Shown: piece after piece, positions 19,054 through 37,194 of the stretch
How the letters are laid out: each line of letters starts with the position of its first letter
Numbering within the stretch: the first letter of the stretch is position 1
From: an uncultured Chloroflexia bacterium
GTDB taxonomy: Bacteria; Chloroflexota; Limnocylindria; Limnocylindrales; CSP1-4
DNA: 64,000 nt
Assembly: GCA_963776285.1 (NCBI GenBank)
Contig: CAVZLW010000006.1
Location: 38,188 to 102,187 of the forward strand
Direction of reading: 5' to 3'
Translations under genes and position numbers: made by a program
The notes under the pieces: model-generated
What the model was told of the DNA's origin: nothing
The model's input: only the letters and a program-made list of their open reading frames with translations
Database searches by the model: none

Positions 19054-19575
19054 TCAGTACTGGATCACCGACGTGACCGTCTGCTCCACGAGCCGCTCGC
19101 GACCCTTCAGGAAGGCGAGCTCGACGAGGAAGGCCAGGCCCACGATCTCCCCCTGCAGGCGCTGCACCAGCTCGACGGTGCCGCGGACCGTGCCACCCGT
19201 CGCCAGGAGGTCGTCGACGATGAGGACCTTCTGACCCGGCTGGATCGCATCGCGGTGGATCTCGAGCGTGTTGGATCCGTACTCCAGGGCGTACTCGACG
19301 CTGATGGTCTCGGCCGGAAGCTTGCCCAGCTTGCGGACGGGCGCGAGGCCCGCGCCGAGCTCGTAGGCCATCGGCGCCGAGAAGATGAAGCCGCGCGACT
19401 CCATCCCGACGACGATGTCGATCTTCCGGCCCGTGTAGGGCGCCAGCATGGCGTCGATCGCGGCGCGGTAGGCGACGGCGTCCTTGAGGAGCGTCGTGAT
19501 GTCGTAGAAGAGGATCCCCGGCTTCGGGAAGTCCGGGATCTCGCGGATCTTCGCGCGGAGCTCGTCGGGGGTCAT
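19054..19575 (-). CDS. apt: adenine phosphoribosyltransferase
   Basis: ORF 19054..19575 (173 aa) has the PRPP-binding motif VLIVDDLLATGGT and is a full-length Apt-like sequence. Confidence 0.95.
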   Translation of the reverse strand: MTPDELRAKIREIPDFPKPGILFYDITTLLKDAVAYRAAIDAMLAPYTGRKIDIVVGMESRGFIFSAPMAYELGAGLAPVRKLGKLPAETISVEYALEYGSNTLEIHRDAIQPGQKVLIVDDLLATGGTVRGTVELVQRLQGEIVGLAFLVELAFLKGRERLVEQTVTSVIQY

Positions 19576-19655
19576 GGTCGCGGGAACCTCCAGGGCGCCG
19601 GCGCCGCGCCGGCAGATAGCGGATCGCCGGCGGCCGGATGCCGCCCGTCGAGAGT

Positions 19656-21143: not shown

Positions 21144-21757
21144 TTCGCCCCGAACTTCCTCTCCTCGCCACGCCGCAGGCGCCCGATGTTGTCGAGATGG
21201 AAGAGCCAGATCAGGACCGGCGCTCCGATCGAGAACCCCAGCAGGGCGAGCGGCTCACCCGCAGCCAGGATCTGCACGGTGAACACGACGCCGCCGACGG
21301 CGGCGCTGACGAGCGAGGCCACGGACGTGTAGCGCGTGACACCGAGCACGATCAGGAAGACCACCAGCGTGACGATCGCCTGGGCGGGCGCCAGGACGAG
21401 CGCCGCCCCGAACGCCGCCGACACACCCCGGCCACCGGAGAAGCCGAGGAAGGGGGACCGGCTGTGGCCGACGATCGCGGCCAGTCCGGCGAGCACCTCG
21501 ACCTCGACGCCGGCCCCCAGGGCGCGGGCGAGCAGGACGGCCAGCGTGCCCTTGAGCATGTCCAGGATGCCCGAGACGAGGGCCAGCCGCGGACCGAGGG
21601 CTCGCATGACGTTTGCCCCGCCCGTCCGCCCGCTCCCGATCGTGCGCGGGTCGGGGCCGCCGGTGAGCCGGGCCACGATGACGCCCCAGGGGATCCCGCC
21701 GATGAGGAACGCGACCGCGACGATGGCGACGGCGCGAACGGCGGCGGCGAGGTCCAT
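21140..21757 (-). CDS. plsY: glycerol-3-phosphate acyltransferase PlsY
   Basis: In ORF 21140..22000 the first 81 codons are junk that overlaps the EI gene. The ATG at 21757 gives MDLAAAVRAVAIVAVAFLIGGIPWGVIVAR…GSGRTGGANVMRALG…HSRSPFLGFSGGRGV, which are PlsY motifs. Confidence 0.85.
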   Translation of the reverse strand: MDLAAAVRAVAIVAVAFLIGGIPWGVIVARLTGGPDPRTIGSGRTGGANVMRALGPRLALVSGILDMLKGTLAVLLARALGAGVEVEVLAGLAAIVGHSRSPFLGFSGGRGVSAAFGAALVLAPAQAIVTLVVFLIVLGVTRYTSVASLVSAAVGGVVFTVQILAAGEPLALLGFSIGAPVLIWLFHLDNIGRLRRGEERKFGAK

Positions 21758-21779
21758 GGCCGGGGAGTATAGGGGGCCG

Positions 21780-23989
21780 TCAGGCCCCGGAGCCGCCCTC
21801 CCCGGCCGCCCCGGCGATCCGCCCGAGGAGCGCGGACGCCAACGTCCGGACGGCCGTCGCGTCCCGCGCGACGAGCGCGGCGCCTGCCAGCTTGCGGAGC
21901 TCCGCGCTCGTGACGGCGGCCAGCGCCAGGCGCACTTCGTCGAGCGAGCCGGCGTCCGCAGACAGCTCGTCGACGCCCAGGCCGACGAGCACCAGGGCAC
22001 CTGCAGGGTCGCCGGCGAGCTCCCCGCACACGGCCACGGGGATGCCGGCGGCGTCGGCGCCGGCCACCACGCCCGCGATCGCCCGCAGCACGGCGGGATG
22101 GAGGGCGTCCTGGAAGCGACCCAACGTGGCGTTCCCGCGGTCCGCGGCCATCACGTACTGGGTCAGGTCGTTCGTGCCGATGCTGAAGAAGGCCACCCGC
22201 CGGGCCAGCTCCGGGGCAAGCAGCGCGGCGGCCGGGATCTCGACCATGATGCCGGTGACCATCGCCTCGGCGCAGACCTGGCCGGCCGCGAGGACCCCCG
22301 CACGGGCCTCGTCGCGCAGGGACTCCAGGAGGTCGACGTCGTCGAGAGTCGCGACCATGGGAGCCATGACGTGCGGTCGCACGCCGGCCAGCCCGCCGGC
22401 TCGCCAGATCGCCCGGAGCTGGGTCCGCAGGAGCTCGGGGTCGCCGTACGCCAGGCGGATCGCCCGCACGCCCAGGAAGGGGTTCGCCTCCGCCGGCAGG
22501 CCCAGGTAGGGGATCTCCTTGTCGCCCCCGATGTCGGCCAGCCGGACGACGACGGGGCGGTCCGGGCCGAATGCCTCGAACGCGCGCCGGTACGCGGCGA
22601 CCTGCTCGTCCTCGGTGGGCGGCACCTGGCGCCGCATGAAGAGGAACTCGGTCCGGAAGAGCCCGACGCCCTCGGCGCCGGCCTCGAGCGCCCGCGGCGC
22701 GTCGTCCGGATTGCCGATGTTCGCCACGAGGAGGACGCGGGCGCCGTCGGAGGTTGCCCCGGGCGCGGCCGCGCGCCGCGGCGGCCCTGGCGCGCCGCGC
22801 GGCGAGCGCCGCCGCGCGCTCGGCCAGGGCGGCCTTTCGCCCCGGCGTCCGGGTCGATGAGGACCTCGCCGGATTCGCCGTCGAGGGCGATCTCGACCGC
22901 GACTCCCGACGCGGCGGCGTCGTCGACCGCCTCCAAAAGCCCGGCGCACCCGACGACGCACGGGATGCCGAGCCCGCGGGCAAGGATCACCGCGTGCGCC
23001 GTCCGCGACCCGCCGGCGAGGGCGATGCCGCGCAGGAACGCGGCCGGGATCTCGGCCGTCACCGAGGGCGGCAGGTCGTCGGCGATCGCGACGACGGGGG
23101 CATCGGGGAGCGCCAGCGTCTCGCCGCGCAGGATCCGGGCGATCCGCGCGCCGACGTCCCGCACGTCCGCGGCGCGCGCCGCCAGCAGCTCGTCGCCGAG
23201 GCTGGCGATGGCGAGCGCCGCCTCCGATGCCGCGGCCGTGACGGCCGCGGCCGGGTCGGCTCCGGCCGTCACGCGCTCGAGAGCGTCGTCGACGATGGTC
23301 GGGTCGGTGGCCAGGACCGCCTGGGCCTCGAAGATCCCCGCGTCGTCGGGCCGTCCTGCTGCCCGGATGCGGGCTGCCAGCGCGTCGAGCTGGGCCTCGG
23401 CCTCCGCAGCTGCCGCGCGGATCGCGGTCGCGGGATCACCGGTTGCCGCGGCCGGCGCGGCGGACGGCTGCTCGCGATAGCGCCACGCCGGTGCCGTCGC
23501 GATGCCGGCGACGGCACCGTCCCCGCGAAGGCGGCGGGCGCCCGGATCCACCGCCGGGCCGGTCCCGGCCACGGCAGGCGACGGCGGCAGGGGCGGCCCG
23601 GGCTGGGCGGCAGAGGCCCCGGGGGCCGCAGGAACGGCAGCGGCCGACGGCGCCGCGGAGGCCGGCGACGCAGCAGGCGCTGCGGCGGCCTCGGGAGCCG
23701 CGGGACGCGGGGGGATCTCCTCGCCCAGGCCGGCCTCGATCGCCGCCCTGATGGAGGCGATCGCCTCCACCTCGTCCTCGCCCTGGGCCGTGATCCGGAC
23801 CACGTGGCCCATGCGCACGCCCAGCGGCTGGACCCTCAGCATCTGCTTCGCGTTGGCGGGACCCGCTCCCGTGGACAGGTTCTGGATCGTCACGTCCGAG
23901 CGGACCTTGCCGCAGGTCCGGACGAACTGGCCCAGCGGTCGCAGGTGGAGTCCGTTCGGGTTGCGGATCTCGATCTCGAGCGTCTGCAC
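21780..23989 (-). pseudogene. ptsI: HPr–Enzyme I fusion (ptsH-ptsI) gene, interrupted by two single-nucleotide frame changes
   Basis: Frame A (23989 down to ~22845) encodes an HPr domain (MQTLEIEIRNPNGLHLRPLGQFV…), an Ala/Pro linker, and the EI N-terminal and phospho-His domains (GGSRTAHAVILARGLGIPCVVGC). Frame C (about 22840..22760) encodes the EI linker helix RKAALAERAAALAARRARAAAARG. Frame B (22760..21780) encodes the PEP-utilising TIM barrel (LLVANIGNPDDA…GVGLFRTEFLFM…FFSIGTNDLTQY…CGELAGD). The switches occur at the C/G runs at 22840-22844 and 22757-22763. Confidence 0.75.
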
Positions 23990-24006
23990 GGGTCTCCTCC
24001 CGGTGG

Positions 24007-25131
24007 TCAGGGCACGGGACGGCGAGGCTGGTCGGCCTCGGGGGCCGCCGGCGAGGCCGGACGACCGGCCTGGCCGGTAGCGAGGAGTGCGACGATGCGG
24101 GACGGCTCAGCCGCCAGGTCGGCGGCCAGGACCGGGTCGACGGTCGCCGCGTCGACGAGCGCGGCCAGGGCGGCATTGACCGGCGTCGCGACGCCGCACG
24201 CGATCCCGGCCCGGGCCACGGCCCCGTTGAGCCACGCGACCTCCGAGGGTCCCTCAGCTCCGCCCCGCAGGTGGAGCCGGAGGGACGGCGACTTTCCGCC
24301 GCGAGCCCCGCCGACCACCCGGCGCAGGGCGAACCGCGACAGCCGGCGCGGCAGGCGGATGCCGATGGCGAGGAGGGGCACGTTCGCTCCCGGGAGCCCA
24401 ACCGGCCGGATCTCCAGGGCGCGCATCACGGCGAGCGCCTCGAGCAGCTGGCGGCGCTCGACGTCGAAGAGCGCGGGGTCGGCGTAGAGGACCGCCGGGT
24501 CGCGGTCTGCGAGGGCGGAGAGCGCGTTGCCGACGAGATTGGCCAGCAGCTTCGACCACTTCATGGCCCGCGCATCGGAGATTCGCCGCGCCGGCAGGCC
24601 CGCCCCGCCGAAGTCGTCGACGAGCGCGGCCACCAGCCCGTCGACGTCCCCCGCGACACGGGCGAGGCCGATCCCGCCCCGGCCGCGCCACTCCACCTCC
24701 TGCGGGCGCGAGCGCTCGACCGGCGCGGTCAGCGAGCCGGCGACGTGGGCGATCCCCGGGCGGGCCGCCGCGACGAGGTCCTCCGCGCCGACGCCGTTCT
24801 GGATCGTCAGCACGGGAGCCGAGGGCCAGGCTCGCAGGTCGTCGAGGGCCCCGGCCAGGTCGAACGTCTTCACCGCGAGGACGACCAGGTCCGGGGACGC
24901 GGCGAGCTCGGCCGGGGTGCTCGCGCGGCGCACGCGTGCCACCACGCGACGGCCGTCCGGCTCGTGGACGACGATCTCGTCGCCCGCGTCGGGCACGCGC
25001 GGGTCCAGCAGGACGACCTCGGCGCCGGACGCGGCCAGGAGGCCTCCCAGCAGCGTCCCGACCGCGCCCGCCCCCAGCACGGCGACGCGCCGCGGCGCGC
25101 CGGGCAGGCCGGCCGCGGCGGTCGCGCTCAC
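24007..25131 (-). CDS. ketopantoate reductase (PanE/ApbA) family NAD(P)-dependent oxidoreductase
   Basis: It has the Rossmann motif VAVLGAGAVGTLLGGLLAASG, a catalytic Lys in VKTFDL, and KWSKLLANLVGNALSAL. The order and spacing of these match the PanE family. Its stop overlaps the dhaM start. Confidence 0.7.
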   Translation of the reverse strand: MSATAAAGLPGAPRRVAVLGAGAVGTLLGGLLAASGAEVVLLDPRVPDAGDEIVVHEPDGRRVVARVRRASTPAELAASPDLVVLAVKTFDLAGALDDLRAWPSAPVLTIQNGVGAEDLVAAARPGIAHVAGSLTAPVERSRPQEVEWRGRGGIGLARVAGDVDGLVAALVDDFGGAGLPARRISDARAMKWSKLLANLVGNALSALADRDPAVLYADPALFDVERRQLLEALAVMRALEIRPVGLPGANVPLLAIGIRLPRRLSRFALRRVVGGARGGKSPSLRLHLRGGAEGPSEVAWLNGAVARAGIACGVATPVNAALAALVDAATVDPVLAADLAAEPSRIVALLATGQAGRPASPAAPEADQPRRPVP

Positions 25132-25535
25132 TCCGGGATCTTGGGCAGGGTCGCGGCCTCCTCCGCCGCGGCGAGGACGGCGGCCAGGTCGTCGCCGCAG
25201 CTCGCCTGGACGGCGGCAACGACGGCGCCCTCCACCAGCGGCCCGCCCGACAGGCGGACCCGTGCCGCCGCCTGCTCCCCGAGGAGCTCCAGCGCCGTCT
25301 GGGTGGCCAGCACCGCGCTGCCCAGGTCGACGAGGACGAGGACGCCCGCCCCGGCGTCCGCGGCTGTGATCGCGGCCATGATGGCGGCGGCATCCGTTCC
25401 GAGCTGGCCGTCGGCGGTCCCGCCGGCGGCCTCGATGCGCAGGTCGTCGCCGGCCATCTGGCGGGCCAGCTCCACCGTCCCTGCCGCGATCTGCGCGGAG
25501 TGGCTGACGATGACGATCCCGACAAGCTCATCCAT
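25128..25535 (-). CDS. dhaM: PTS-dependent dihydroxyacetone kinase phosphotransferase subunit, EIIA(Man)-like domain only
   Basis: 135 aa. GIVIVSHSAQIAAGTVELARQM … GTDAAAIMAAI … LVLVDLGSAVLATQTALELLG … RVRLSGGPLVEG aligns closely to the E. coli DhaM N-terminal domain (phosphorylatable His in VSHS). It has no HPr or EI-like extension. Confidence 0.85.
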   Translation of the reverse strand: MDELVGIVIVSHSAQIAAGTVELARQMAGDDLRIEAAGGTADGQLGTDAAAIMAAITAADAGAGVLVLVDLGSAVLATQTALELLGEQAAARVRLSGGPLVEGAVVAAVQASCGDDLAAVLAAAEEAATLPKIPE

Positions 25536-25544
25536 GGCGGGTTC

Positions 25545-25937
25545 CTATGGCGCCGCGTTGATGATCGCCGCGAAGAGGACGACCCCGTAGACGACGGTGA
25601 TGATGCCGACGACCGACAGGACGTTCGTGATCCGCCGCTCCGTCCGCTCCGAGAAGCCGAAGTCGAACAGGATGGCCCGCACGCCCACCAGGGCGTGGTA
25701 CGTCACGAAGACCAGGAAGCAGACCTCGAGGACGATCACCACCGGGTTCCGCAGCCAGTCGATGACCTCCTGGTAGAAGCGCAGCCCGCTTGGCGCGACG
25801 AAGTGCTGGGCGATCATGTGCAGCCCCAGCAGGACGATCAGCGCGACGCCGCTGACGACCTGGCCCACGAAGACCGGCACGCCGCGCGAGCCGGCGGGGC
25901 GATCGGCCGGCCGTGGTTCGGTGGCCATCTCGCTCAC
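25545..25937 (-). CDS. succinate dehydrogenase-type hydrophobic membrane anchor subunit (SdhD-like)
   Basis: 130 aa with three predicted TM helices and a conserved His in HALVGV. It lies 3 nt downstream of the SdhC-like gene. Confidence 0.6.
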   Translation of the reverse strand: MSEMATEPRPADRPAGSRGVPVFVGQVVSGVALIVLLGLHMIAQHFVAPSGLRFYQEVIDWLRNPVVIVLEVCFLVFVTYHALVGVRAILFDFGFSERTERRITNVLSVVGIITVVYGVVLFAAIINAAP

Positions 25938-25940
25938 CTC

Positions 25941-26360
25941 CTACTCGCCCGCGAAGATCCGAAGCGCCCCGACGAGCGCCACGAAGGCCGCGATGACCAT
26001 GAACGCGATGAAGAGCGCCTTCTGCCGGCTCGCCACGAGCCCCAGCCCGACGAGACCGACGCGGATCCCGTTCAGGCCGTGGATCAGCATCCCCGTCAGG
26101 AGGAAGACATCGAGAAGGAGGAACGGGGGGCTGAGCGCGATGTTGACGAAGCTGTCCCAGGCGTTCGGCCCCTGGACCAGCATCGACAGGATCATCAGGT
26201 GGAGATAGAGGTAGACGACGAGGCCGAGCCCGGTGAGGCGGTTGAGGATGAAGGCCAGGCCACCGAGGCGACGGCCGCGCGGGTCGAACCAGCCGACGAT
26301 GCCCCGGCGACGCGCGGGGCCGGCTACGGGCCGCGGCCGCTCGACGGTCGTGCTCGCCAT
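25941..26360 (-). CDS. succinate dehydrogenase-type cytochrome b subunit (SdhC-like)
   Basis: 139 aa with three TM helices (…LAFILNRLTGLGLVVYLYLHLMILSM…LTGMLIHGLNGIRVG…), carrying candidate heme-ligating His residues. Its ATG overlaps the SdhB-like stop (TGATG). Confidence 0.6.
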   Translation of the reverse strand: MASTTVERPRPVAGPARRRGIVGWFDPRGRRLGGLAFILNRLTGLGLVVYLYLHLMILSMLVQGPNAWDSFVNIALSPPFLLLDVFLLTGMLIHGLNGIRVGLVGLGLVASRQKALFIAFMVIAAFVALVGALRIFAGE

Positions 26361-27106
26361 CAGCGGTTTCCTCCGAACGAGAAGAGGCGTCGCGCCCGGG
26401 CCGCGGCGGCCGACCGGCGGAGCCGCATGATCGCGGCTGCCGGGTCCACGCCGGACGGGCAGGCCTCGGAGCACTCCCAGGTCAGGTGACAGCGCCAGGC
26501 GGCCTGGTCGTCGTCCATCAGCCGGATGACGGGGCCCGGGTCGAGCCCGCGGGGCTCCTCGACCACGCGCCACGCCGCGGCGAGCGCGGCGGGGCCCACG
26601 TAGCGCGGGTCGCTGCCGGCCACCGGACAGGCGGAGAGACAGATCCCGCACTCGATGCAGTCCTCGTAGCGATCCAGCTCGTCGATCCCTTCCGCCTTCT
26701 CGGCGCCGGGGATCTTCTCCGAGGACCTGACCAGCGGCCGGCCGGCCTCGTCGAACTCGTCGAAGAAGACGTTCATGTCGACGACGAGGTCGGAGAGGAC
26801 CGGGATGTTGTCGAGCGGCTCGACGACGACCTCGGCGCCGGCCGGAACGGGCGTCACGCAGGCCAGGCCTTCCCGGCCATTCACCTGCATCCCGCACGTC
26901 CCGCACGAGGCGTGGAAGCAGGAATGCCGGAAGGTCAGGCTCGGGTCGAGCTCGCGGCGGATGGCCACGAGCGAGTCGAGGATGGTCGTGCGGGGCCCGA
27001 CGGCCACGTCGAAGGTGTCGTAGCGCAGCGCCGCGGGATCGTCGCCCTCCTTCCGGCGGGAGACGACGAAGCGGGTCGTGCGGAGGTCGGTCGCGCTGTC
27101 GGTCAT
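26360..27106 (-). CDS. succinate dehydrogenase/fumarate reductase-type iron-sulfur subunit (SdhB/FrdB family)
   Basis: The 2Fe-2S segment DPSLTFRHSCFHASCGTCGMQVNG…LAC…DLVVDM is followed by CIECGICLSACP ([4Fe-4S]), GPAALAAAWR, and CHLTWECSEACP ([3Fe-4S]). It is collinear with E. coli SdhB. Confidence 0.85.
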   Translation of the reverse strand: MTDSATDLRTTRFVVSRRKEGDDPAALRYDTFDVAVGPRTTILDSLVAIRRELDPSLTFRHSCFHASCGTCGMQVNGREGLACVTPVPAGAEVVVEPLDNIPVLSDLVVDMNVFFDEFDEAGRPLVRSSEKIPGAEKAEGIDELDRYEDCIECGICLSACPVAGSDPRYVGPAALAAAWRVVEEPRGLDPGPVIRLMDDDQAAWRCHLTWECSEACPSGVDPAAAIMRLRRSAAAARARRLFSFGGNR

Positions 27107-27116
27107 CGCTCCGCTC

Positions 27117-28304
27117 CTACGCCGCGTAGTACGCGGTGTGCGGAAGGGTCACGACCTCCCGCGTCTGGCACGGCGCCTCGACGCCGACCTTGCGACAGAT
27201 GACGTCGGCCGTCGTCTCGGCCATCGCGCGGAGGGTCGTCCCCTTGCCGCCGGAGATGGTCACGAAGCCCTCGACGCCGTCCGTCTCGCGGTGGTCGAAG
27301 CACTTGAAGGTCCGGCTGAGCTCGCGGCCGCTCTCGGCGTCCTTGGAGCCGATCAGCGGGCGGGCGGCCGACCAGGCGGCCCGTCGCTCCGCGTGGCGGA
27401 TCGCGGGGATCATGGTCGACCCCTCGACGTACATCCGCTCGACGTGGTCCTCGGGCACTCCCAGGTCGTCCGGATCGTCCACGACCCAGGAGCTGGTGCC
27501 GACAACGGAGAGGCCCCGCTGGGGCACCACGATGTCGCCGTCACCGGAGGGGTGCAGGCGGTTCACGACCATGTTGCACCAGCGGCCGCGGACGGCCAGC
27601 AGGACGCCGGGCGAGGGCCGGATGGGCACGTCGCAGCCGGCCATCACGGCGAGCTGCTCCGCCCATGGCCCGGTGGCATTCACGACGAGGTCGGCGCGGA
27701 TCTCCTCCTCGACGCCGTTCACGAGGTCGCGGACCCGGATCCCGGAGACGAGGTGGTCGGCCACCAGCATCTCGGTCACGGTGGTCCAGGGACGGACGAC
27801 CGCGCCTCCCGCCTTCGCGCTGGCGAAGAAGCGGAGGGGCATCCGCATCGCGTCCATCGTCGCGTCGGGGACCTGGACGGCCATCCTGACCTGGGGGTTC
27901 AGGTTCGGCTCCAGGCGCAGGGCCTCCTCGCGCGAGACCCGGCGCGCCGGGATGCCGCTGGCGAGGCAGGACTCGAAGAACAGGGGCTCGTAGGCCACGT
28001 CCTCGTCGGTGATGGCGACGAAGAGCCCGTCGTTCGCCTCGAAGGCGCCCGGGCAGACGCGGCCCAGGATCTGGCGCTCCTCGATGCACTCGACGGCGGA
28101 CTCGCGATCCTTGACCGCGTAGCGAGCTCCGGAGTGGAGCAGGCCGTGGTGGCGGCCGGTCGTCCCGGAGGTGATCTCGCCACGCTCCACGAGCGTCACG
28201 CGGAAGCCCCGGAGGACGAGGTCGTGGGCGAGCGCGCCGCCGGTGCCGCCGCCCCCCACGATCGCGACGTGGAAGGGCTGTCGGGGTAGTCGGGTGATGG
28301 TCAT
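27117..28304 (-). CDS. glpA: FAD-dependent glycerol-3-phosphate dehydrogenase, GlpA-type flavoprotein lacking the C-terminal BFD-like Fe-S domain
   Basis: The ATG at 28304 gives MTITRLPRQPFHVAIVGGGGTGGALAHDLVLRGFRVTLVERGEITSGTTGRHHGLLHSGARYAV, near-identical in pattern to the E. coli GlpA N-terminus. Similarity continues to ...FVTISGGKGTTLRAMAE...CRKVG. The 395-aa product corresponds to about the first 400 of E. coli GlpA's 542 residues. Confidence 0.85.
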   Translation of the reverse strand: MTITRLPRQPFHVAIVGGGGTGGALAHDLVLRGFRVTLVERGEITSGTTGRHHGLLHSGARYAVKDRESAVECIEERQILGRVCPGAFEANDGLFVAITDEDVAYEPLFFESCLASGIPARRVSREEALRLEPNLNPQVRMAVQVPDATMDAMRMPLRFFASAKAGGAVVRPWTTVTEMLVADHLVSGIRVRDLVNGVEEEIRADLVVNATGPWAEQLAVMAGCDVPIRPSPGVLLAVRGRWCNMVVNRLHPSGDGDIVVPQRGLSVVGTSSWVVDDPDDLGVPEDHVERMYVEGSTMIPAIRHAERRAAWSAARPLIGSKDAESGRELSRTFKCFDHRETDGVEGFVTISGGKGTTLRAMAETTADVICRKVGVEAPCQTREVVTLPHTAYYAA

Positions 28305-28373
28305 GTGCTGCGCTCCGCGCCCTGACAGGGAGATGCCCGGGCCCCGCGTGCGGGGCCCGGGCACCGGGAGGGT

Positions 28374-29873
28374 CTAGTCGACCCAGCCGAACGTGCGGGT
28401 GACGGCCTTCTTCCACTGCGCGTACTCGGCGTCGACCTTCGCGGGATCCATGGTCGGATGCCACTCGTGGTCCTTCGCCCAGTTCGCGCGGAGGTCCTCG
28501 ACCTCGGCCCAGTAGCCGACCGCCAGGCCGGCCGCGTAGGCCGCCCCGAGGGCCGTCGTCTCGGCGACCTTCGGCCGGATGACCGGGACCTTCAGGACGT
28601 CGGACTGGAACTGCATCAGCAGGTTGTTGTAGACCATGCCGCCGTCGACCTTGAGGGCCGTCAGCGGAACGCCGGAGTCGGCGTTCATCGCGTCCAGGAC
28701 CTCGCGGGTCTGCCAGGCGGTCGCCTCGAGCACGGCTCGGGCGATGTGGCCCTTGTTGACGTACCGGGTCAGGCCGGCGATGACGCCGCGGGCGTCGTTC
28801 TTCCAGTACGGCGCGAAGAGGCCGCTGAACGCCGGCACGAAGTAGACGCCGCCGTTGTCCTCGACCGTGGCCGCCAGGGCCTCGATGTCGGGCGACGCCG
28901 CGATCAGGCCGATGTTGTCGCGGACCCACTGCACGAGGGCGCCGGTGATGGCGATCGACCCCTCGAGGGCGTACACGGCCGGCTGGTTGCCGATCTTGTA
29001 GCCGAGCGTCGTGAGGAGGCCGCTCTTGCTCGGGACGGCCTTCGTGCCCGTGTTGAGGAGCATGAAGCAGCCCGTGCCGTAGGTGTTCTTCGCCTCGCCG
29101 GGCGAGAAGCACGTCTGGCCGAAGAGGGCAGCCTGCTGGTCGCCCAGGTCGCCGGCGACGGGGACGCCGAGGAGGTCGCCGACGGCCCGGCCGTAGACCT
29201 CGGACGAGGCCTTGACGGCGGGCAGCATCGCGTGCGGGACGCCGAGCAGCGCGGTGATCTCGGGATCCCAGGCCAGCGTGGTGTAGTTGAACATCAGGGT
29301 CCGGCTGGCGTTGGAGACGTCCGTCACGTGGACGCCGCCGGTGGTGCCGCCCGTCAGGTTCCAGATGCACCAGGTGTCGATGTTGCCGAAGAGGAGGTCG
29401 CCGGCCTCGGCCGCGGCGCGCGCGCCGTCGACGTTGTCGAGGATCCACTTGACCTTCGGGCCCGAGAAGTAGGTCGCCAGCGGCAGGCCGGTCTTGGGGC
29501 GGAGGCGATCCGGGCCGCCGTCCTTCTCGAGGTAGTCGCAGATGTCCTTGGTGCGCGTGTCCTGCCAGACGATGGCGTTGTAGACGGGCTTGCCGGTCTT
29601 CTTGTTCCAGACGACCGTCGTCTCGCGCTGGTTGGTGACGCCGACGGCGGCGAGGTCCTCGGCCTTGAGGTGAGCCTTGGCGAGGGCGCCCTTGATGACG
29701 TCCTGGCTGCGCGCCCAGATCTCCATCGGGTCGTGCTCGACCCAGCCGGGCTTCGGATAGATCTGCTCGTGCTCCATCTGATCGATCCCCACGACCTCAC
29801 CGGCGTGGTTGAAGATCATGAAGCGGGTGCTCGTGGTCCCCTGGTCGAGGGCCCCCACGAAGTTCTTCGCCAT
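28374..29873 (-). CDS. glpK: glycerol kinase
   Basis: 499 aa. [27 protein letters not shown] and KVDGGM follow the FGGY-family GlpK organisation. Confidence 0.97.
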
Positions 29874-29911
29874 GTGTGTCTCCCGATATCGGTTGACCCT
29901 GACTTGCCGGA

Positions 29912-30544
29912 CTAGTGCCCGGCCCAGACCTCTGCGGCGGACCGCAGGAGGAGATGCGAGGACGTCGCGCCGGGATCCTGGTGCCCGGCCGACCGCTCGC
30001 CGAGGTAGCTCGCCCGGCCCTTGCGGGCGACGAGCGGCACCGTGGCGAGCATGCCCTGCTGTGCCCCGTCGGCCATCCGGGCCAGGGCGTCGCCGACGGT
30101 GGCGCCGTCGGCGATCGCGGCCCGGAGAGCGTCGCGGGCGGGGATGAGGGCATCGACCATCGTCTTGTCCCCGGGCTCGGCCTTCCCGATCCGGAGGACC
30201 CCGCCGAGACCGGCTTCGTAAGCCGTGGCGAATTCCTCCAGCGTGAGGGCTTCCTTCCCGGCGATGGCGCCTCCCATCTGCATGAAGAACATCCCGTAGA
30301 GCGGGCCGCTGGCGCCCCCGACCGTCGAGACGAGCGTGGTGCCGACGGTCTTGAGGGTGGCCCCGATGTCGGGGCCCGTCAGGCCGTCCAGCTTGCCGGC
30401 CACGGCGGTGAAGCCGCGGTCCATGTTGATCCCGTGATCGGCATCGCCGATCGCCGAGTCCAGGTCCGTGAGATACGCCTTGTTCTCCGTCACGACGGCG
30501 GCGAACCGGCGGATCCAGGCGAGGATGTCGTCGTGCGAGATCAT
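29912..30544 (-). CDS. dhaL: dihydroxyacetone kinase ADP-binding subunit
   Basis: It has [19 protein letters not shown] (Mg/ADP site), GGASGPLYG and [10 protein letters not shown]. It lies immediately downstream of dhaK. Confidence 0.9.
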
Positions 30545-30592
30545 CGGCGGCTCCGTTCCCGCGTTACGGGCAGTAACGATGTGACGAACGGC

Positions 30593-31591
30593 TCACAGGC
30601 CCCAGCGGAGGCCCGGCGTGAGGACCGGTGCGTCCCAGTACTTCGTGAGCTCGTCATCGAGGCGGAGGAGGGTGATCGAGCAGCCCGCCATCTCCAGCGA
30701 GGTGATGTAGTCCCCGACCAGGTTCCGGGCGATCGTGATGCCGCGGCCGTCGAGGATCTTCTTGAGCTCGTTGAAGACGACGTACAGCTCGATGAGCGGC
30801 GTGCCGCCCATCCCGTTGACGAAGGCGAGGACCTTGTCGCCCCTCTGGAACGGAAGGTCGTCAAGGATCGGCGTGGCGAGCATCGCCGTGATCTCGGCGG
30901 CGGAGGCGATCTTCATCCGCGTCCGTCCCGGCTCGCCGTGGATCCCGACGCCGATCTCCATCTCGTCGTCGCCGAGCTCGAACGTCGGCTTGCCGGCCTG
31001 CGGGACGGTGCAGCTCGTGAGGGCCATGCCCATGGAGCGCACGTTGTCCTGGACCTTCTGGCAGAGCGCCGTGACGGTCGCCAGATCGGCGCCCGCCTCG
31101 GCGGCCGCGCCGACGATCTTCTCGGCGAGGACGGTCCCCCCGACGCCGCGGCGGCCCGCGGTGTAGAGCGAGTCCTTGACCGCGACGTCGTCCGCGATGA
31201 CGACGCTGGTGACCTCGATCCCCTCGGCCCGGGCCATCTCGGCCGCGAGCTCGAAGTTCATGATGTCGCCGGTGTAGTTCTTGACGATGTGCAGGACGCC
31301 GGCGCCGGCGTCGACCGCCTTGGTCGCGGCGAGCATCTGGTCCGGCACGGGCGAGGTGAAGACTGCGCCGGGGCAGGCTGCATCGAGCATGCCCATCCCG
31401 ACGAAGCCGCCGTGCATCGGCTCGTGGCCGGAGCCACCGCCCGAGATCACGCCGACCTTGCCGGCCCTGGGGGCGCCGGCGCGCACGACCACGTTGGGCT
31501 CGATGACCCGCACGAGGTCGCCGTGCGCCGCCACGACGCCCGCGAGAGCGTCGTCGACGACGGTTTCGGGAGCATTGATGAGCTTCTTCAT
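30593..31591 (-). CDS. dhaK: dihydroxyacetone kinase Dha-binding subunit
   Basis: 332 aa containing [25 protein letters not shown] (active-site His) and …NYTGDIMNF…. An SD GAGGA precedes the ATG. Confidence 0.93.
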
Positions 31592-31710
31592 CCGTTCCTC
31601 CTGTGGCGCATTGGGCCCGGGTGCTCGGGAACGTGCTGTGGACGGGTGCGCGCCGGCGGCGAGGCCGTCGTGCCGCCGGCGCGCGAGGGGTGCGTGCTAG
31701 AACGCCCCCG

Positions 31711-32484
31711 TCACTTGGCCGCGTTCACGACCAAGCTGACGAAGACACTCTGGTAGATGATCGCCGCGAGGACGCCGCCGACGAGCGGGCCCACGACCGG
31801 GATCCACGAGTAGCCCCAGTCGGAGTTGCCCTTGCCGGGGATCGGCAGGATCGCGTGCATGATGCGCGGCCCAAGGTCGCGGGCCGGGTTGATGGCGTAT
31901 CCGGTCGTCCCGCCGAGGGACAGGCCGATCACGAGGACGAGGAAGGCAACGGGCAGGGCGCCGAGGGACGCGAGACCGCCCGAGGTGGGCCCGACGTTGT
32001 TCCCGAAGGCGAAGATCACGAAGACCAGCACGAATGTGCCGATCACTTCGGAGATGAAGTTGAAGACGGTGTTGCGGATCGCCGGCCCGGTCGAGAAGAC
32101 CGCCAGCTTGAGGCCCGGGTCCTCAGTCTCGACCCAGTGCGGGTAGTAGTGGATGAAGACCAGGAAGGCACCCAGCATCGCGCCGATCATCTCGCCGATG
32201 ATGTACGTGCCGAAGGTCGGAAGGTCCATCGGGTTGGGCCCGCCCAGGATCAGGTCCCGGGTGTAGATGCCGATGGTGACCGCCGGGTTCAGGTGGGCGC
32301 CGCTGAACGGGCCCGCCACCACGACGCCGCAAAAGACCGCAAAGGCCCACGCCATGGTGATGACAATCCAGCCGCTGGCATTCGCCTTCGACTTGGCGAG
32401 CAGGACGCCAGCGACCACGCCGTCGCCGAGAAGGATCAGGATCATCGTCCCGAAGATCTCGGCAAACAGGATTTCGCTATTCAT
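31711..32484 (-). CDS. glpF: aquaglyceroporin (glycerol uptake facilitator)
   Basis: 257 aa with six TM segments and two NPA boxes (GAHLNPAVT, GYAINPARD). An SD GAGGGAGAG precedes the ATG. Confidence 0.93.
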   Translation of the reverse strand: MNSEILFAEIFGTMILILLGDGVVAGVLLAKSKANASGWIVITMAWAFAVFCGVVVAGPFSGAHLNPAVTIGIYTRDLILGGPNPMDLPTFGTYIIGEMIGAMLGAFLVFIHYYPHWVETEDPGLKLAVFSTGPAIRNTVFNFISEVIGTFVLVFVIFAFGNNVGPTSGGLASLGALPVAFLVLVIGLSLGGTTGYAINPARDLGPRIMHAILPIPGKGNSDWGYSWIPVVGPLVGGVLAAIIYQSVFVSLVVNAAK

Positions 32485-32809
32485 GCTCTCTCCCTCTGGG
32501 TTGAAGGAAACGCGCCATTCGCGCGGAGGGCGACGCCACGTCGCCGATCGAACCGAGGATCCGGCGAGCGAGCACCCGGTACGGGCTCACCGGCAGGGCA
32601 CAGCACGATCTGCTCGGGTCCGTCCCTCCCGTGGTGTCGCGGCCTCGGCCTCTGGCCGCGCGACCGTCTGGGCGCGGTCGGCGCACGGTGCCCGCCGGCA
32701 CCGTTGCGGCAAGGTTACGACCGGGCACGACCGGGAATCGTCAAGACATTGTCCAGATTCGTGAGGTCCCGCTGGGACGCGGCTCCGTCGGCCGGCCGCG
32801 GGCCGCCTG

Positions 32810-33466
32810 TCAGCCCCCGGCGGCGGCGTCGGCGAGGGCCCGCAGCAGGAGGGCGCTCGACGCGGCCCCGGGATCCATGTGGCCGATCGAGCGCTCCCCG
32901 AGGTAGCTGGCCCGGCCCTTGGTGGCGAGGAGCGGGATCGTCGCCCGGGCGCCGGCCTCGGCCGCCCCGGCCGCACGCGCCGCCGCGTCGGCGAGCGGCG
33001 CTCCCGCGCCGACCGCCACCTCGAAGGCCGCGCGTGCCGGCAGCAGGGCGTCGAGCATCGTCTTCTCCCCCCGGGCGGCCCGGCCCAGGGCCGCGATGGC
33101 GTCGACCGCGGCGGCGAAGGCGACGACCGCCTGGGCCTCCCGGCCCGGGGCCGGCCGCCGGCCGTCGCTCGCGGCGGGCAGGTCGAGCGAGGTCCCGGCG
33201 CGCTGGAAGCCCCGTCCGTAGAGCGCCCCGCTCGCGCCGCCGACCGTGCCGATGAGGGTCCGACCGGCGGCCTCCAGGACGAGGGGCGGTGGATCGCCGG
33301 GACACTCACCAGTGTCGAGCCGACGGATCAGCTCCCGGAACCCGCGATCGAGGTTGATCCCGTGGTCGCCGTCGCCGATCGCCGCGTCGAGGTCCGTGAG
33401 GTGCTCGCGCTGGTCGGCGACGCGGGCCGCGGCGAGGCGCAGCCATCGAACCAGGAGATCCTCCAT
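32810..33466 (-). CDS. DhaL-family (Dak2 domain) protein, paralog 2
   Basis: It has DLDAAIGDGDHGINLDRGF, GGASGALYG and [10 protein letters not shown]. Its start overlaps the stop of the second dhaM-like gene by 1 nt. Confidence 0.85.
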   Translation of the reverse strand: MEDLLVRWLRLAAARVADQREHLTDLDAAIGDGDHGINLDRGFRELIRRLDTGECPGDPPPLVLEAAGRTLIGTVGGASGALYGRGFQRAGTSLDLPAASDGRRPAPGREAQAVVAFAAAVDAIAALGRAARGEKTMLDALLPARAAFEVAVGAGAPLADAAARAAGAAEAGARATIPLLATKGRASYLGERSIGHMDPGAASSALLLRALADAAAGG

Positions 33467-33894
33467 CAGGACCCCGTGCCGGCCAGCCAGTCGGGCGGCA
33501 GCTTCGGCGCCCGGCCCTCGGCGTCCGCGGCCACCCGGACCTGCTCGCGGGTCGAGCCCCCGGCCGCCTCGACGGCCGCCCGGATGGCCCCCTCGACGAG
33601 GGGGCCCTGGCTCACGGCGACGAGCCCTCGCTCGAGCGCCGGGAGCTCCTCGAGCGCCATCTCCAGGGCCATCGCGGCACTCCCCAGGTCGAACAGCACG
33701 ACGACGCCGTCATCCGGTGACGCGGCCAGCCCCGCGTGCAGCGCGTCGAGGATCCCCGGGCTGCTCGTGCCCAGGTTCCCGACGAGGGTCCCCCCGGCGA
33801 TCGCGACGGGGACGGCGGGGGCCGCCTGGGCCACCATCGCCCTGAGCGCGCGCAGCAGGTCCGGGCTGTGGCCGACGAGCACCAGCGAGACCAT
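33466..33894 (-). CDS. DhaM-like EIIA(Man) domain protein, paralog 2
   Basis: In ORF 33466..34608 the upstream part is antisense junk of the + strand dhaL3. The ATG at 33894 gives MVSLVLVGHSPDLLRALRAMV…GVVVLFDLGSAAMALEMALEELP…GPLVEG, with the same architecture as dhaM. Confidence 0.8.
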   Translation of the reverse strand: MVSLVLVGHSPDLLRALRAMVAQAAPAVPVAIAGGTLVGNLGTSSPGILDALHAGLAASPDDGVVVLFDLGSAAMALEMALEELPALERGLVAVSQGPLVEGAIRAAVEAAGGSTREQVRVAADAEGRAPKLPPDWLAGTGS

Positions 33895-33972
33895 CGGATC
33901 GACTCCGCGCCCTGCATTTCGGGGGCGCCGGCGCCACGCGACCCCGCCCGCCGCCGTAGACTCAGGCGGCTG

Positions 33973-34686
33973 ATGAAGAGGATAGGGACCCTGGCGCCTC
34001 CCGCGCGCGTCGACGCCGTGCGTGTCCCGCACGCCGGGCTGTCCGCGTCCGACGTCCTCGGGTTCGTCGAGCGCGCGGCGACGACGCTCACCCGGCACGA
34101 GGCACTCCTCGATCGCCTGGACGCGGCGCTGGGTGACGGCGACCACGGGACGAACATGCGGATCGGCTTCGTCGCGGCGATCCCCGTGGCGCGTGCCGGG
34201 CTCGCGGAACGACCCGACGACGTCGGCGAGCTGCTCCGCATCCTCGGCCACAGCCTCGTCGGCAGCGTGGGCGGCGCGAGCGGTCCCCTCTACGGCACGG
34301 CCTTCATCGAGGCTGGCTTCGCGCTCGCGGGGCGGCCCTCCGCCGACGCCAGCGACCTGGCCGCCGCGCTGGAGGCCGGGCAGGCGGGGCTCGTCCGTCG
34401 CGGCCGCTGCGCCATCGGCGACAAGACGATCCTGGACGCGCTCGACCCCGCGGTGCGCGCCCTCCGGGCGGGTGCGGCGGCCGGCCACCCGATCGACGCG
34501 TGCGCCGCCGGCGCCGCGGTCGCCGCCGCGGCCGGCATGCGGTCGACGATCCCCCTGGTGGCACGTCGAGGGCTGGCCCTGCGGCTCGGCGAGCGGTCGC
34601 GGGGTCATCGCGACCCCGGCGCAACCTCCTGCTTCCTCCTCCTCGAGGCGATGGCCCGGGCCGTTCGCCGGGAGCCGGCGGCATGA
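33973..34686 (+). CDS. DhaL-family (Dak2 domain) protein, paralog 3, translationally coupled to sensor kinase
   Basis: The ATG at 33973 gives MKRIGTLAPP…, with [29 protein letters not shown] and …RLGERSRGHRDPGA. Its stop TGA overlaps the kinase ATG (ATGA at 34683-34686). Confidence 0.8.
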   Translation: MKRIGTLAPPARVDAVRVPHAGLSASDVLGFVERAATTLTRHEALLDRLDAALGDGDHGTNMRIGFVAAIPVARAGLAERPDDVGELLRILGHSLVGSVGGASGPLYGTAFIEAGFALAGRPSADASDLAAALEAGQAGLVRRGRCAIGDKTILDALDPAVRALRAGAAAGHPIDACAAGAAVAAAAGMRSTIPLVARRGLALRLGERSRGHRDPGATSCFLLLEAMARAVRREPAA

Positions 34687-36428
34687 CCAGGGCGACGCGG
34701 GACCAGGCGCGAAAGGCGCCTGCCGCGACGTCGACCGGCCGCCCGGCGGAGCTGGAGGTCAGGATCCGCGAGCTCGAGGCAGAACGACGGCGCGTCTTCG
34801 AGGATGCCCAGCGCGAGGCCGACGCGATGTTCGCGCAGTATCAGCTGAGCCAGCTGCTGGCGGCGGGCGGGAGCGTGGACGAGATCGCGGCCGCCGTCCT
34901 TGCCGAGGTGGCGCGAGCGTGCGGGGCGGCGGGGGCGGCGCTGTGGCTCGCCGGCCCGGGGAGCCGGGCCCTCGGGCTGGTGGCGATGTTCCCCGGCGAC
35001 GCGGACGATCCGGTCGGTCCCGGCTGGGTGGTGGTGCCCCGGGGCTTCACCGACGCCTGGGCCGCCGCGTCGTGGGCCGCGCTGGGCGGATGGAGCGGCG
35101 TCACGCTCCCCGAGGGCCGCTCGATGGGCGGCGGCGCGCCGCCGAGCGGCGGGACAGGCGCGGTCGGGTACCTCGCCGTCCGGGCGGACGGCCGCGTGCC
35201 CCTGGAGCCCGACAGCGAGCGCTACCTGGCGAGCGTCCGCCGGGAGCTGGCCATCACGCTGCGGGCCGCCCAGCTGCGCGCCTCGCTGGCCCGCGAGCAG
35301 GCGACCCTGGCGGCGATCCTGGAAGGTGCCACCGATGCGATCGTCGCCGTCGACTGGAGCCGGCGCGTCGTCCGCCTCAATGCCGCCGCGGCGGCGCTGG
35401 TCGGCACGTCGGCCCGGACCGGGACCGGGATGCGCTGCGCGGAGTTCCTGGGCTGCGTCCGTCCGATCGCCGAGGGCAGGCTGCTCGGCGACGGGATCGT
35501 CGCCGAGCAGCCCCCGGACCTCCTGTGCGGTCAGCGCTGCCCCTTCGCGGAGGTCCTCGAAGGCGGCCTGCCGATCGTCGGCCGGGAGCTCGCGGTGCGC
35601 CGGCGCGATGGCGGCGAGATCCCGGTCGCGGCGAGCGTGTCGCGGATGCCGGTGCCCGACGGCGGCGCCGTGGCCATCCTCCGCGACCTGCGCGCCGGGC
35701 GCGTGCTGGACGACGCGAAGACCAGCTTCGTGGCGGCGGTGTCACACGAGCTGCGCACGCCGCTGGCCCTGATCGACGGCTATTCGCAGAGCCTCCTGCA
35801 CCTGGACCTGGACCGCCCGACCGCGCGGCGCCACGTCGAGCGCATCGCCGACGCCGCGCGCCGCCTCGCGACCCTCGTCGACGACATCATCGACGTGAGC
35901 CAGCTCGAGAGCGACATGCTCGTCCTGCGCCGCACGCCGGTCGCCATCGACGGCCTCCTGCGCACGTACGTGGCCGAGCGAGCCGACGGGCTCGACGCAC
36001 GCCTGATCGCCCTCGCGCTGCCGCGCCTGCTGCCGCCCGTGGACGTCGACGCCACGCGGATCCGGCAGGTCATCGCCAACCTCGTCCAGAACGCCGAGAA
36101 GCACGCCGGGCCCCGCGCGCCGATCGAGATCCGGGCGCGCCACACCGACGACGCCACCGTCGTGGTCACCGTGGTCGACGGCGGTCGCGGCATCGCTCCC
36201 GAGGATCGCGACCATGTCTTCGAGCGCTTCTACCGGGGAAGGCGCGTGCGGGAGTCGCAGGTGCCGGGAAGCGGCCTCGGGCTGTACCTGTGCCGCCGCA
36301 TCGTCGAGGCCCACGGCGGCTGGATTCGCCTCGATGCGACCACCCGGGGGACCTCCATCTCGGTCGGACTCCCGGTGGCGCCCCTGTCCGGCGGCGGAAG
36401 CGGGCCGCGCCGCGAGGCCCCCGCATGA
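34683..36428 (+). CDS. cytoplasmic sensor histidine kinase (coiled-coil/GAF-like, PAS, HisKA, HATPase_c)
   Basis: MTRATRDQ… has no TM segments. It has an N-terminal coiled coil (ELEVRIRELEAERRRVF), a PAS-like segment (AILEGATDAIVAVDWSRRVVRLN), an H-box (FVAAVSHELRTPL), an N-box (QVIANLVQNAEKH) and G-boxes (DGGRGI…GSGLGL). Confidence 0.85.
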   Translation: MTRATRDQARKAPAATSTGRPAELEVRIRELEAERRRVFEDAQREADAMFAQYQLSQLLAAGGSVDEIAAAVLAEVARACGAAGAALWLAGPGSRALGLVAMFPGDADDPVGPGWVVVPRGFTDAWAAASWAALGGWSGVTLPEGRSMGGGAPPSGGTGAVGYLAVRADGRVPLEPDSERYLASVRRELAITLRAAQLRASLAREQATLAAILEGATDAIVAVDWSRRVVRLNAAAAALVGTSARTGTGMRCAEFLGCVRPIAEGRLLGDGIVAEQPPDLLCGQRCPFAEVLEGGLPIVGRELAVRRRDGGEIPVAASVSRMPVPDGGAVAILRDLRAGRVLDDAKTSFVAAVSHELRTPLALIDGYSQSLLHLDLDRPTARRHVERIADAARRLATLVDDIIDVSQLESDMLVLRRTPVAIDGLLRTYVAERADGLDARLIALALPRLLPPVDVDATRIRQVIANLVQNAEKHAGPRAPIEIRARHTDDATVVVTVVDGGRGIAPEDRDHVFERFYRGRRVRESQVPGSGLGLYLCRRIVEAHGGWIRLDATTRGTSISVGLPVAPLSGGGSGPRREAPA

Positions 36429-37174: not shown

Positions 37175-37194
37175 CGGGGCGAGGCAGCCCACGG

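Follow-up and report, generated by a model that had tools for sequence, protein, structure and literature searches.

A glycerol and dihydroxyacetone locus with one DhaK, three DhaL and two DhaM in an uncultured Chloroflexota bacterium, and a proposed sensor role for its DhaL3

Why does a locus for the use of glycerol and dihydroxyacetone (DHA) carry one gene for the DHA kinase subunit DhaK, together with three for DhaL and two for DhaM? The locus in question lies in a stretch of 64,000 nucleotides (hereafter the window) from an uncultured Chloroflexia bacterium (contig CAVZLW010000006.1 of assembly GCA_963776285.1, positions 38,188 to 102,187 of the forward strand). We consider it somewhat more probable than the opposite that in this uncultured soil Chloroflexota of high G+C (Limnocylindrales-like) two older modules have been joined into one composite locus, in which the additional genes are the remnant of another operon and a sensor protein, DhaL3. 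The locus varies known systems and is not a categorically new one.

Copy numbers and origin of the additional dha genes

Because the window has about 74% G+C, raw lists of open reading frames are useless for it, and the genes have been called from a frame plot of G+C at third codon positions (GC3) together with Pfam and NCBIfam. On the minus strand, from 33894 to 19656, they are ordered dhaM2-dhaL2, glpF, dhaK-dhaL1 and glpK-glpA'-sdhB'C'D'-dhaM1-panE-like-HPr/EI-plsY-MFS. On the plus strand, an operon of dhaL3, a histidine kinase gene (HK) and a response regulator gene (RR) runs divergently from dhaM2-dhaL2. This map agrees with the gene identities and the collinear order claimed in an earlier note on this DNA, and the gaps given there are exact (325 bp between dhaL2 and glpF, 119 bp between glpF and dhaK, 38 bp between dhaL1 and glpK, and 69 bp between glpK and glpA'). 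The limits which it set for the cluster, 21780-34686, hold for the genes from HPr-EI to dhaL3, while plsY, MFS, HK and RR fall outside them. When all cluster proteins are searched against the 64 kb by tblastn, 1 DhaK, 3 DhaL, 2 DhaM, 1 HPr and 1 EI are found, so that the note's counts of dha genes are right for the window.

The only Dak1 protein of the window is encoded by dhaK (30593-31591; minus strand, as are all genes below unless stated). It has a Dak1 E-value of 1e-134 and the motif GIHGEPG, and it scores as DhaK (TIGR02363, 491.7 bits against a cutoff of 406.25) and not as DhaQ (274.7 bits, below the cutoff of 413). The operonic dhaL1 (29912-30544; TIGR02365, 239.3 bits) and dhaL2 (32810-33466; 218 aa, 195.5 bits against a cutoff of 138.3) both encode canonical DhaL proteins with the motifs GD(A/G)DHG and KGRASY, and DhaL1 is 47% identical to E. 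coli DhaL. The claim that both DhaM are bare EIIA(Man) domains is also correct. DhaM1 (25128-25535; 135 aa) is a single-domain protein with 134.7 bits on TIGR02364 against a cutoff of 98.25; DhaM2 (33466-33894; 142 aa) is a single EIIA(Man)-type domain (PF03610), which stays below that cutoff with 80.6 bits. Aligned with DhaM1, DhaM2 keeps the N-terminal phospho-His (His9) and DLGSA, and the phospho-His is thus present in both DhaM. The start of dhaL2 overlaps the stop of dhaM2.

For the distribution of the cluster, a genome scan centred on GlpA' has given 80 loci with 10-kb flanks (L004-L083) from Chloroflexota and Actinomycetota. Close homologs of GlpA' number thousands, with Chloroflexi, Limnocylindrales and Solirubrobacteraceae metagenome-assembled genomes (MAGs) as the named sources. 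GlpA' is followed by SdhB' in all 80 loci and by SdhB' with both anchor subunits in 66; dhaK-dhaL-glpK-glpA' is found in 50, and dhaM with EI downstream in 45. Since it recurs in both phyla, the core glpF-dhaK-dhaL-glpK-glpA'-sdhB'C'D'-dhaM-HPr/EI is an old unit common to the two. The panE-like gene with plsY (13 of 80 loci; the plsY linkage is lineage-specific) and dhaM2-dhaL2 with the divergent dhaL3-HK-RR (8 of 80) are confined to the lineage of the window, i.e., to MAGs labelled 'uncultured Chloroflexia' or Limnocylindrales. The gene order of the window is retained in L001-L010, L019, L029, L053 and L084-86. The earlier note regarded the paralog counts as unusual; actually, the same counts are kept through the whole Limnocylindrales-like lineage, and they are not an oddity of this genome.

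A metagenome scan with the DhaL3 alignment as query has revealed a simpler layout in a more distant sub-lineage (L094, L097, L114, L136). There, one complete operon in the order dhaM, MIP, dhaK, dhaL is transcribed divergently from dhaL3, HK and RR. In neighbour-joining trees, the operonic DhaL and DhaM of this layout sit in the clades of DhaL2 and DhaM2, and its divergent copy in that of DhaL3; DhaL2 is sister to the divergent DhaL' of Actinomycetota described below. As the DhaL and DhaM of a complete related operon group with DhaL2 and DhaM2, the pair dhaM2-dhaL2 appears to derive from a second dhaM-MIP-dhaK-dhaL operon by loss of MIP and dhaK, and the counts of three DhaL and two DhaM follow from two modules lying side by side. 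The earlier note proposed a phylogeny of the copies, and held that further dhaK copies pairing with dhaL2 and dhaM2 would point to simple duplication of a complete operon. The orthology of DhaL2 and DhaM2 to members of a complete operon comes close to that case. Against four relatives, dN/dS of dhaM2 and dhaL2 is 0.12-0.45 (DhaM2, 0.12-0.36), with DhaL2 somewhat above DhaL1; by this measure the pair is still under purifying selection and is not junk. Presumably, DhaM2 and DhaL2 feed the single DhaK. Overall, an odd paralog count can arise from the fusion of two operons.

Some other loci carry additional dhaL genes as well. In 21 actinobacterial-type loci (L071, L013, L031, L062 and 17 others), one divergent canonical DhaL' with KGRASY lies upstream of glpF. 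In L071 (3922-5533), the divergent DhaL' is followed by an IclR-type regulator and a PHP-domain protein, which is a second case of a solo DhaL beside a regulator. In L015 (14235-15859), a second dhaL-dhaK pair lies ~5 kb downstream of the main cluster, and its products are 36% and 49% identical to DhaL1 and DhaK, respectively.

DhaL3, its histidine kinase and the regulatory DNA

The gene dhaL3 (33973-34686, plus strand) encodes a divergent DhaL of 237 aa with a Dak2 domain and an N-terminal extension of ~22 aa. The three DhaL of the window are ~45% identical to one another, and DhaL3 shares 37% identity with E. coli DhaL along the whole length. It has more than 2000 relatives. DhaL3 carries ARRGLALRLGERS, in which RGLALR stands for KGRASY; this replacement is seen in 115 of the best 120 homologs and in 12 of 12 loci. 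The block that matches ARRGLALRLGERS in E. coli DhaL, in DhaL2, in the actinobacterial DhaL' and in 50 of 51 DhaL1 begins with A(R/T), followed by 11 further letters. KGRASY or RGRASY is present in 50 of 51 DhaL1 (the exception has RGRAAY), in 9 DhaL2, in 20 actinobacterial DhaL' and in E. coli DhaL, and the L. lactis DhaL (3CR3) aligns through this block. In E. coli numbering, the changes of DhaL3 are R178L, S180L and Y181R. Every DhaL3 has the Mg/ADP motif GDGDHG, and dN/dS is 0.16-0.19. DhaL3 passes the TIGR02365 cutoff (165.7 bits), yet it lacks the KGRASY that is conserved elsewhere. Judged from these motifs, DhaL3 is a distinct subfamily, which in our proposal has given up the role of a kinase subunit. 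Three database proteins in which Dak2 seems to be fused to the HK sensor (P0370, P0427 and P0433) have been rejected as DhaL3-HK fusions, for they are full of out-of-frame stretches and represent run-through or indel artefacts in GC-rich long-read contigs.

ATGA overlaps join dhaL3 to HK (34683-36428, plus strand) and HK to RR (36425-37174, plus strand). HK follows DhaL3 in 8 genome loci, in L001-3 and L084-86, and in 15 of the 15 metagenome contigs with enough downstream DNA. The sensor kinase, of 581 aa, has GAF, PAS, HisKA (57.6 bits) and HATPase (HATPase_c, 96.9 bits) domains according to Pfam and structure models, and the regulator is of the OmpR/PhoB type, with Response_reg (97.5 bits) and Trans_reg_C (70.7 bits). 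That is, one operon encodes a HisKA and HATPase_c kinase together with a DNA-binding regulator that has a receiver domain, as in a classical two-component system. No hydrophobic or membrane segment has been found in HK, and it is predicted to be cytoplasmic. The AlphaFold2 model of its sensor part (pLDDT 86.9) shows a long N-terminal helix, the GAF domain, a linker helix of 40 aa and the PAS domain; the N-terminal helix and GAF modelled alone give a pLDDT of 89.3. This module is rare, with 101 matches among 1.84 billion representative proteins at E <= 0.001. Two HK homologs that occur without dhaL3 (L011, L018) also lack the conserved N-terminal helix, and for this reason the helix is a candidate docking element.

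In E. coli, the transcription factor DhaR has DhaL-ADP as co-activator and DhaK as co-repressor (PDB 4LRX, 4LRY, 4LRZ). The N-terminal domain of DhaR is a GAF and PAS sensor of DhaL-ADP and DhaK which binds both (PMC10084136). By analogy, we infer that DhaL3 and HK form a two-component counterpart of the activation of DhaR by DhaL-ADP. In this lineage-specific module, i.e., dhaL3-HK-RR divergent from dhaM2-dhaL2, DhaL3 with its retained ADP/Mg site would bind the cytoplasmic GAF-PAS kinase and report the ADP/ATP state to it. This state would be set by phosphorylated DhaM and by the speed at which DHA is drained, and the OmpR-type regulator would then control the dha and glp promoters. The binding, the direction of signalling and the targets of the regulator are all conditional parts of this proposal.

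The conserved upstream sequences are in keeping with regulation of the locus. Between dhaL2 and glpF, the 325 bp (32485-32809, minus strand) contain a promoter-like block, a tandem repeat and a structured leader, and the block is conserved in an alignment of 13 orthologous regions upstream of glpF. Inside it, at 32717-32735 (minus strand), CCCGGTCGT occurs twice as a direct repeat with 10-bp spacing (CCSGGNCGT twice in relatives), and it is a candidate binding site of an OmpR-type regulator; in a window so rich in GC, the CCCGGTCGT 9-mer by itself lacks specificity, and genome-wide it does not suffice to define a regulon. The leader of ~220 nt (32487-32712, minus strand) has two hairpins conserved across relatives according to RNAalifold. 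Just before the ribosome-binding site of glpF, at 32511-32525, there is a terminator-like hairpin with the stem CGCGCGAATGGCGCG then TTTCCTTC, and the leader may be an attenuator. No Rfam match has been obtained in the dha/glp locus, the glpF leader included. On the other side, at 33950-33963 and 10 nt upstream of the dhaL3 start codon, 12 related loci have GCCGCCGTAGACTC without any change amid variable flanks; it is likely the core promoter or operator of the dhaL3-HK-RR operon. A sigma-70 consensus scan of 19000-37500 found no promoter.

The catabolic core, its phosphorelay and the neighbouring genes

The other module would be the catabolic core, glpF-dhaK-dhaL1-glpK-glpA'-sdhB'C'D'-dhaM1-(panE-like)-HPr/EI. 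Glycerol should enter by the MIP-family facilitator GlpF (31711-32484; PF00230, TIGR00861), and the glycerol kinase GlpK (28374-29873; TIGR01311, 730 bits) would make glycerol 3-phosphate (G3P) with ATP. DHA bound to DhaK would be phosphorylated by the ATP bound to DhaL1, which would be regenerated from phosphoenolpyruvate (PEP) through the HPr-EI fusion and the single-domain DhaM1. DhaL2 and DhaM2 should also contribute to DHA phosphorylation.

The HPr-EI gene (21780-23989) encodes, after correction of two 1-nt insertions, 735 aa with HPr, a linker rich in Ala and Pro, and EI. The Pfam domains of HPr and EI are all there, spread over two frames. In the three-frame translation, HPr, the linker, the EI N-domain and the His domain are in one frame to ~22835; for the next 24 codons of EI the +1 frame alone is meaningful, and for the PEP-binding domain the +2 frame alone. 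A DNA alignment places the insertions in the A run at 22835-22837 and near 22765, and both are specific to the window and absent from four orthologues. Programmed frameshifting has been considered for this gene, and it is rejected on the same ground. The corrected protein aligns in a single frame with those of L006, L007 and L010 (81-83% identity) and also with the cluster versions of Anaerolineae, Ardenticatenaceae and actinobacteria, and the fusion is intact in both phyla. In a frame scan of the whole window, EI is the only clear flag, a 255-bp flag at 18751-19005 being judged noise. Among related loci, 17 frameshift junctions have been counted in 243 instances of cluster genes from 31 long-read MAGs, against 0 in 362 instances from 49 other MAGs. 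In the long-read loci glpK, glpA', sdhB' and dhaL1 are affected too. In L004, the closest relative, EI carries frameshifts of its own, and three assemblies of one species have different genes broken in each. The nearest relatives of the window are long-read MAGs. Since frameshifts in related loci are limited to long-read MAGs, the two in EI are probably assembly errors, though we would not call this certain. Such frameshifts need checking before a pathway is called broken or intact.

The earlier note also stated that a separate HPr-EI fusion supplies the phosphorelay. The fusion is indeed in the cluster, and it is intact in sister genomes and distant loci, while in the window itself EI is frameshifted twice. 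The conserved fusion fits a phosphorelay for DHA that is encoded by the cluster, and parts of a phosphotransferase system (PTS) have been looked for in the remaining 46 kb of the window and none has been found.

The other distinctive part of the core is glpA' with the three genes after it. GlpA' (27117-28304, with an ATG at 28304) is a GlpA-like flavoprotein of the DAO family with 395 aa. It aligns to positions 1-375 of the 530-position GlpA model, so that the C-terminal region (376-530) is missing, and it scores 425.6 bits, under the cutoff of 552.8. The solved structures nearest to it are G3P dehydrogenases and oxidases. SdhB' (26360-27106) is an iron-sulfur subunit of the complex II type (TIGR00384, 182 bits against a cutoff of 88) with the Cys patterns for 2Fe-2S, 4Fe-4S and 3Fe-4S clusters. 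Among solved structures it matches E. coli SdhB (1NEK_B) best, and in terms of sequence it is a genuine SdhB relative. Two small hydrophobic membrane anchors of the complex II type, SdhC' (25941-26360) and SdhD' (25545-25937), follow; with 44.2 and 50.9 bits they are above the Pfam threshold of PF01127 (Sdh_cyt), and they contain hydrophobic segments but are under the TIGR cutoffs (43.8 and 43.5 against 52.3 bits). Neither a GlpB nor a GlpC gene has been found in the locus by Pfam and NCBIfam, and the set of a full GlpABC is thus incomplete. Nor is there at the locus an SdhA-type flavoprotein (FAD_binding_2 and Succ_DH_flav_C), GlpA' giving only a weak FAD_binding_2 match; the flavoprotein is of the DAO/GlpA type, where complex II would have SdhA or FrdA with SdhB and the anchors. 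We propose that the GlpA-type flavoprotein docks on the iron-sulfur subunit and the two anchors and oxidises G3P to dihydroxyacetone phosphate, with the electrons presumably going to quinone. In the literature searched, no description of a GlpA-type flavoprotein tied to subunits of the SdhBCD type has been found, although an empty search is weak evidence.

Among the other genes of the cluster, the one between dhaM1 and HPr-EI (24007-25131) encodes an NAD(P)H oxidoreductase like PanE/ApbA (PF02558, PF08546; TIGR00745, 144.3 bits against a cutoff of 141.35), with a weak match to NAD(P)H-dependent G3P dehydrogenase. Downstream of HPr-EI lie plsY (21140-21757; acyl-phosphate:G3P acyltransferase, TIGR00023, 155.9 bits) and an MFS transporter gene (19656-21143; PF07690), whose start overlaps the plsY stop. 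The reductase gene and plsY stay paired in 13 Limnocylindrales-like loci, even with HPr-EI elsewhere. The reductase might be a supplier of G3P for PlsY.

The remainder of the window is housekeeping, with metK, ahcY, mfd, pth, ybeY, dnaK/dnaJ/grpE/hrcA and ABC transporters. An adenosylcobalamin (B12) riboswitch at 2277-2423 (minus strand), which exceeds the gathering score with 53.7 bits, precedes genes for a periplasmic binding protein (1134-2273) and a FecCD permease (49-1140), an ordinary B12 uptake operon. Four open reading frames, at 2589-3443 (plus), 8769-9506 (minus), 52592-53707 (plus) and 58917-60716 (minus), have a strong GC3 signal of the coding type and no Pfam match at E <= 1e-5.

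Weighing the readings and comparison with known systems

That DhaL3 is a non-catalytic co-sensor of the GAF-PAS kinase and that GlpA'-SdhB'C'D' is a new class of G3P:quinone oxidoreductase, both together, is a tentative proposition, which we rate a little below even. Several observations weigh against the sensor part of it. When the model of the full HK sensor is compared with the PDB by Foldseek, chains of the DhaR N-terminal domain do rank 2nd, 4th and 15th, which speaks for it, but the TM-scores are low, only 0.24-0.28. With the model of the N-terminal helix and GAF, DhaR is outside the top 50 and generic GAF domains rank best, and a sequence search of the PDB with the HK sensor returned only HisKA matches and no DhaR. 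Since the model of this module fails to retrieve DhaR, the likeness between the predicted HK sensor and DhaR is one of architecture, not specific and not a demonstrated homology. In L011 and L018, HK-RR homologs adjoin glp clusters without dha genes, so that DhaL3 is not essential to the HK family. Four Cys of the HK PAS domain (C252, C258, C282 and C286; window 35436-35540), arranged C-x5-C ... C-x3-C-P-F, are invariant in 60 homologs, which suggests metal, Fe-S or redox sensing independent of DhaL3. The DhaL3-HK contact itself is proposed from gene coupling, i.e., from the ATGA overlap and adjacency, and the loss of catalysis in DhaL3 from conservation; in the literature searched, no account of the role of the KGRASY residues was found. 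Finally, the EI frameshifts, if real, leave the relay inactive in this strain.

A rival explanation, built on the dedicated mini-PTS for DHA of the earlier note, is that all three DhaL and both DhaM are catalytic and share the one DhaK, fed by HPr-EI. The extra copies would then tune flux or the supply of the nucleotide subunit, and the two-component system would be an ordinary neighbour, with dhaL3 as its first co-transcribed target. This agrees with the equivalog cutoff being passed and the Asp-rich Mg/ADP motif being kept by the three DhaL, with the phospho-His of both DhaM, with the conserved HPr-EI fusion and with purifying selection on every copy. Yet KGRASY is replaced throughout the DhaL3 family, dhaL3 is never inside the kinase operon and always overlaps the HK start, and the contigs of simple layout, which hold a complete operon with a DhaL of its own, nevertheless retain dhaL3 with HK; we consider this explanation unlikely.

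Still less probable is decay, in which EI would be a real pseudogene, PTS-dependent DHA phosphorylation would be off, and dhaM2-dhaL2 and dhaL3 would be functionless relics. The two frameshifts within 70 bp of EI, the other EI frameshifts of L004, the absence of MIP and dhaK between dhaM2 and dhaL2 as compared with the simple layout, and the somewhat higher dN/dS of DhaL2 could all be taken in this sense. But frameshifts in cluster genes are seen only in long-read MAGs (17 junctions against 0) and EI is intact in L006, L007 and L010, while DhaM2, DhaL2 and DhaL3 keep their catalytic motifs and a dN/dS of 0.12-0.45 in at least 13 species-level genomes. We give an equally small chance to an unlinked partner, i.e., that DhaL3 serves another substrate-binding protein, as the Dak2-type domain of FakA does with FakB, and that the link to HK is mere co-expression. 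Fatty acid kinase is indeed a case in which Dak2-type nucleotide modules have taken other partners (PMC9136124), and plsY, whose product consumes acyl-phosphate, is in the same locus. However, neither a DegV/FakB-like gene nor a further Dak1 gene occurs in the window or among the related loci that were examined, and DhaL3 is similar to E. coli DhaL over its full length without the FakA architecture. The composite of an old catabolic core and a lineage-specific module with an operon remnant and a putative sensor DhaL3 is thus the reading that we retain.

If this reading is true, the logic of an enzyme serving as a signal has been moved to a two-component system by means of a paralog that is specialised and apparently without catalytic activity. 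This would be a new coupling of PTS and DHA status to such a system (a 'trigger-enzyme paralog'), and would equip a cytoplasmic GAF-PAS kinase with a tractable input in the form of a protein ligand. The hybrid dehydrogenase, if it works as proposed, would extend the complex II family by a new flavoprotein module and, in abundant soil bacteria, would link glycerol with the quinone pool by a new route.

Compared with known systems, the kinase part resembles E. coli DhaKLM in having DhaK, DhaL, an EIIA(Man)-type DhaM and a phosphoryl supply derived from PEP, a mechanism which is standard (PMC6429413; PMC9136124), and differs from it in that DhaM consists of EIIA alone, with HPr and EI fused in a protein of their own. 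The occurrence of ptsH and ptsI inside dha clusters, single-domain DhaM, and IIA(Man)-HPr and HPr-EI fusions are already documented (PMC2405797), and for this reason the idea of a mini-PTS for DHA is not new. Like the clusters with their own ptsH and ptsI in Mesorhizobium loti and Bradyrhizobium japonicum and those with actinobacterial IIA(Man)-HPr fusions, the present one has PTS phosphoryl-transfer proteins embedded in it, which implies a relay directed to DHA (PMC2405797). Unlike in them, HPr and EI are fused here by an Ala/Pro-rich linker and DhaM is separate, and glpF, glpK, a respiratory G3P dehydrogenase, a second DhaM/DhaL pair and dhaL3-HK-RR are also present.

For the dehydrogenase, the likeness to E. 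coli GlpABC is that GlpA' is most similar to GlpA and follows glpK; on the other hand, it has 395 aa against ~540, and its partners are like SdhB, SdhC and SdhD instead of GlpB and GlpC. With E. coli complex II (SdhABCD; PDB 1NEK) it shares an SdhB' that passes the SdhB/FrdB cutoff and two small Sdh_cyt subunits after it, but a DAO-family flavoprotein of the GlpA type takes the gene position of SdhA in 80 of 80 loci, and the surrounding genes are those of glycerol use, not of the TCA cycle.

For the proposed sensor, E. coli DhaR and L. lactis DhaQ/DhaS are the textbook cases of metabolic enzymes doubling as transcription signals. The sensor is predicted to be cytoplasmic and to join GAF, linker helix and PAS, an arrangement like that of DhaR, and a DhaL-type protein is genetically tied to the regulator. 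In contrast, the output here is HisKA/HATPase with a separate OmpR-type regulator, not a one-component AAA+/HTH protein, and the putative sensor is a dedicated paralog, with RGLALR for KGRASY, and not the working kinase subunit. No description of a DhaL paralog linked to a histidine kinase has been found in the literature searched, which is weak evidence of novelty. In the dha operon of L. lactis, where DhaM is single-domain, the DhaK paralog DhaQ (named 'DhaKLM operon coactivator' in NCBIfam TIGR02362) is the co-activator of the TetR-type DhaS. What we propose is the same in that a paralog of a DHA kinase subunit has been recruited purely as the sensor of a transcriptional regulator; it differs in that the recruited paralog would be DhaL, the nucleotide subunit, and its partner a histidine kinase instead of a TetR repressor.

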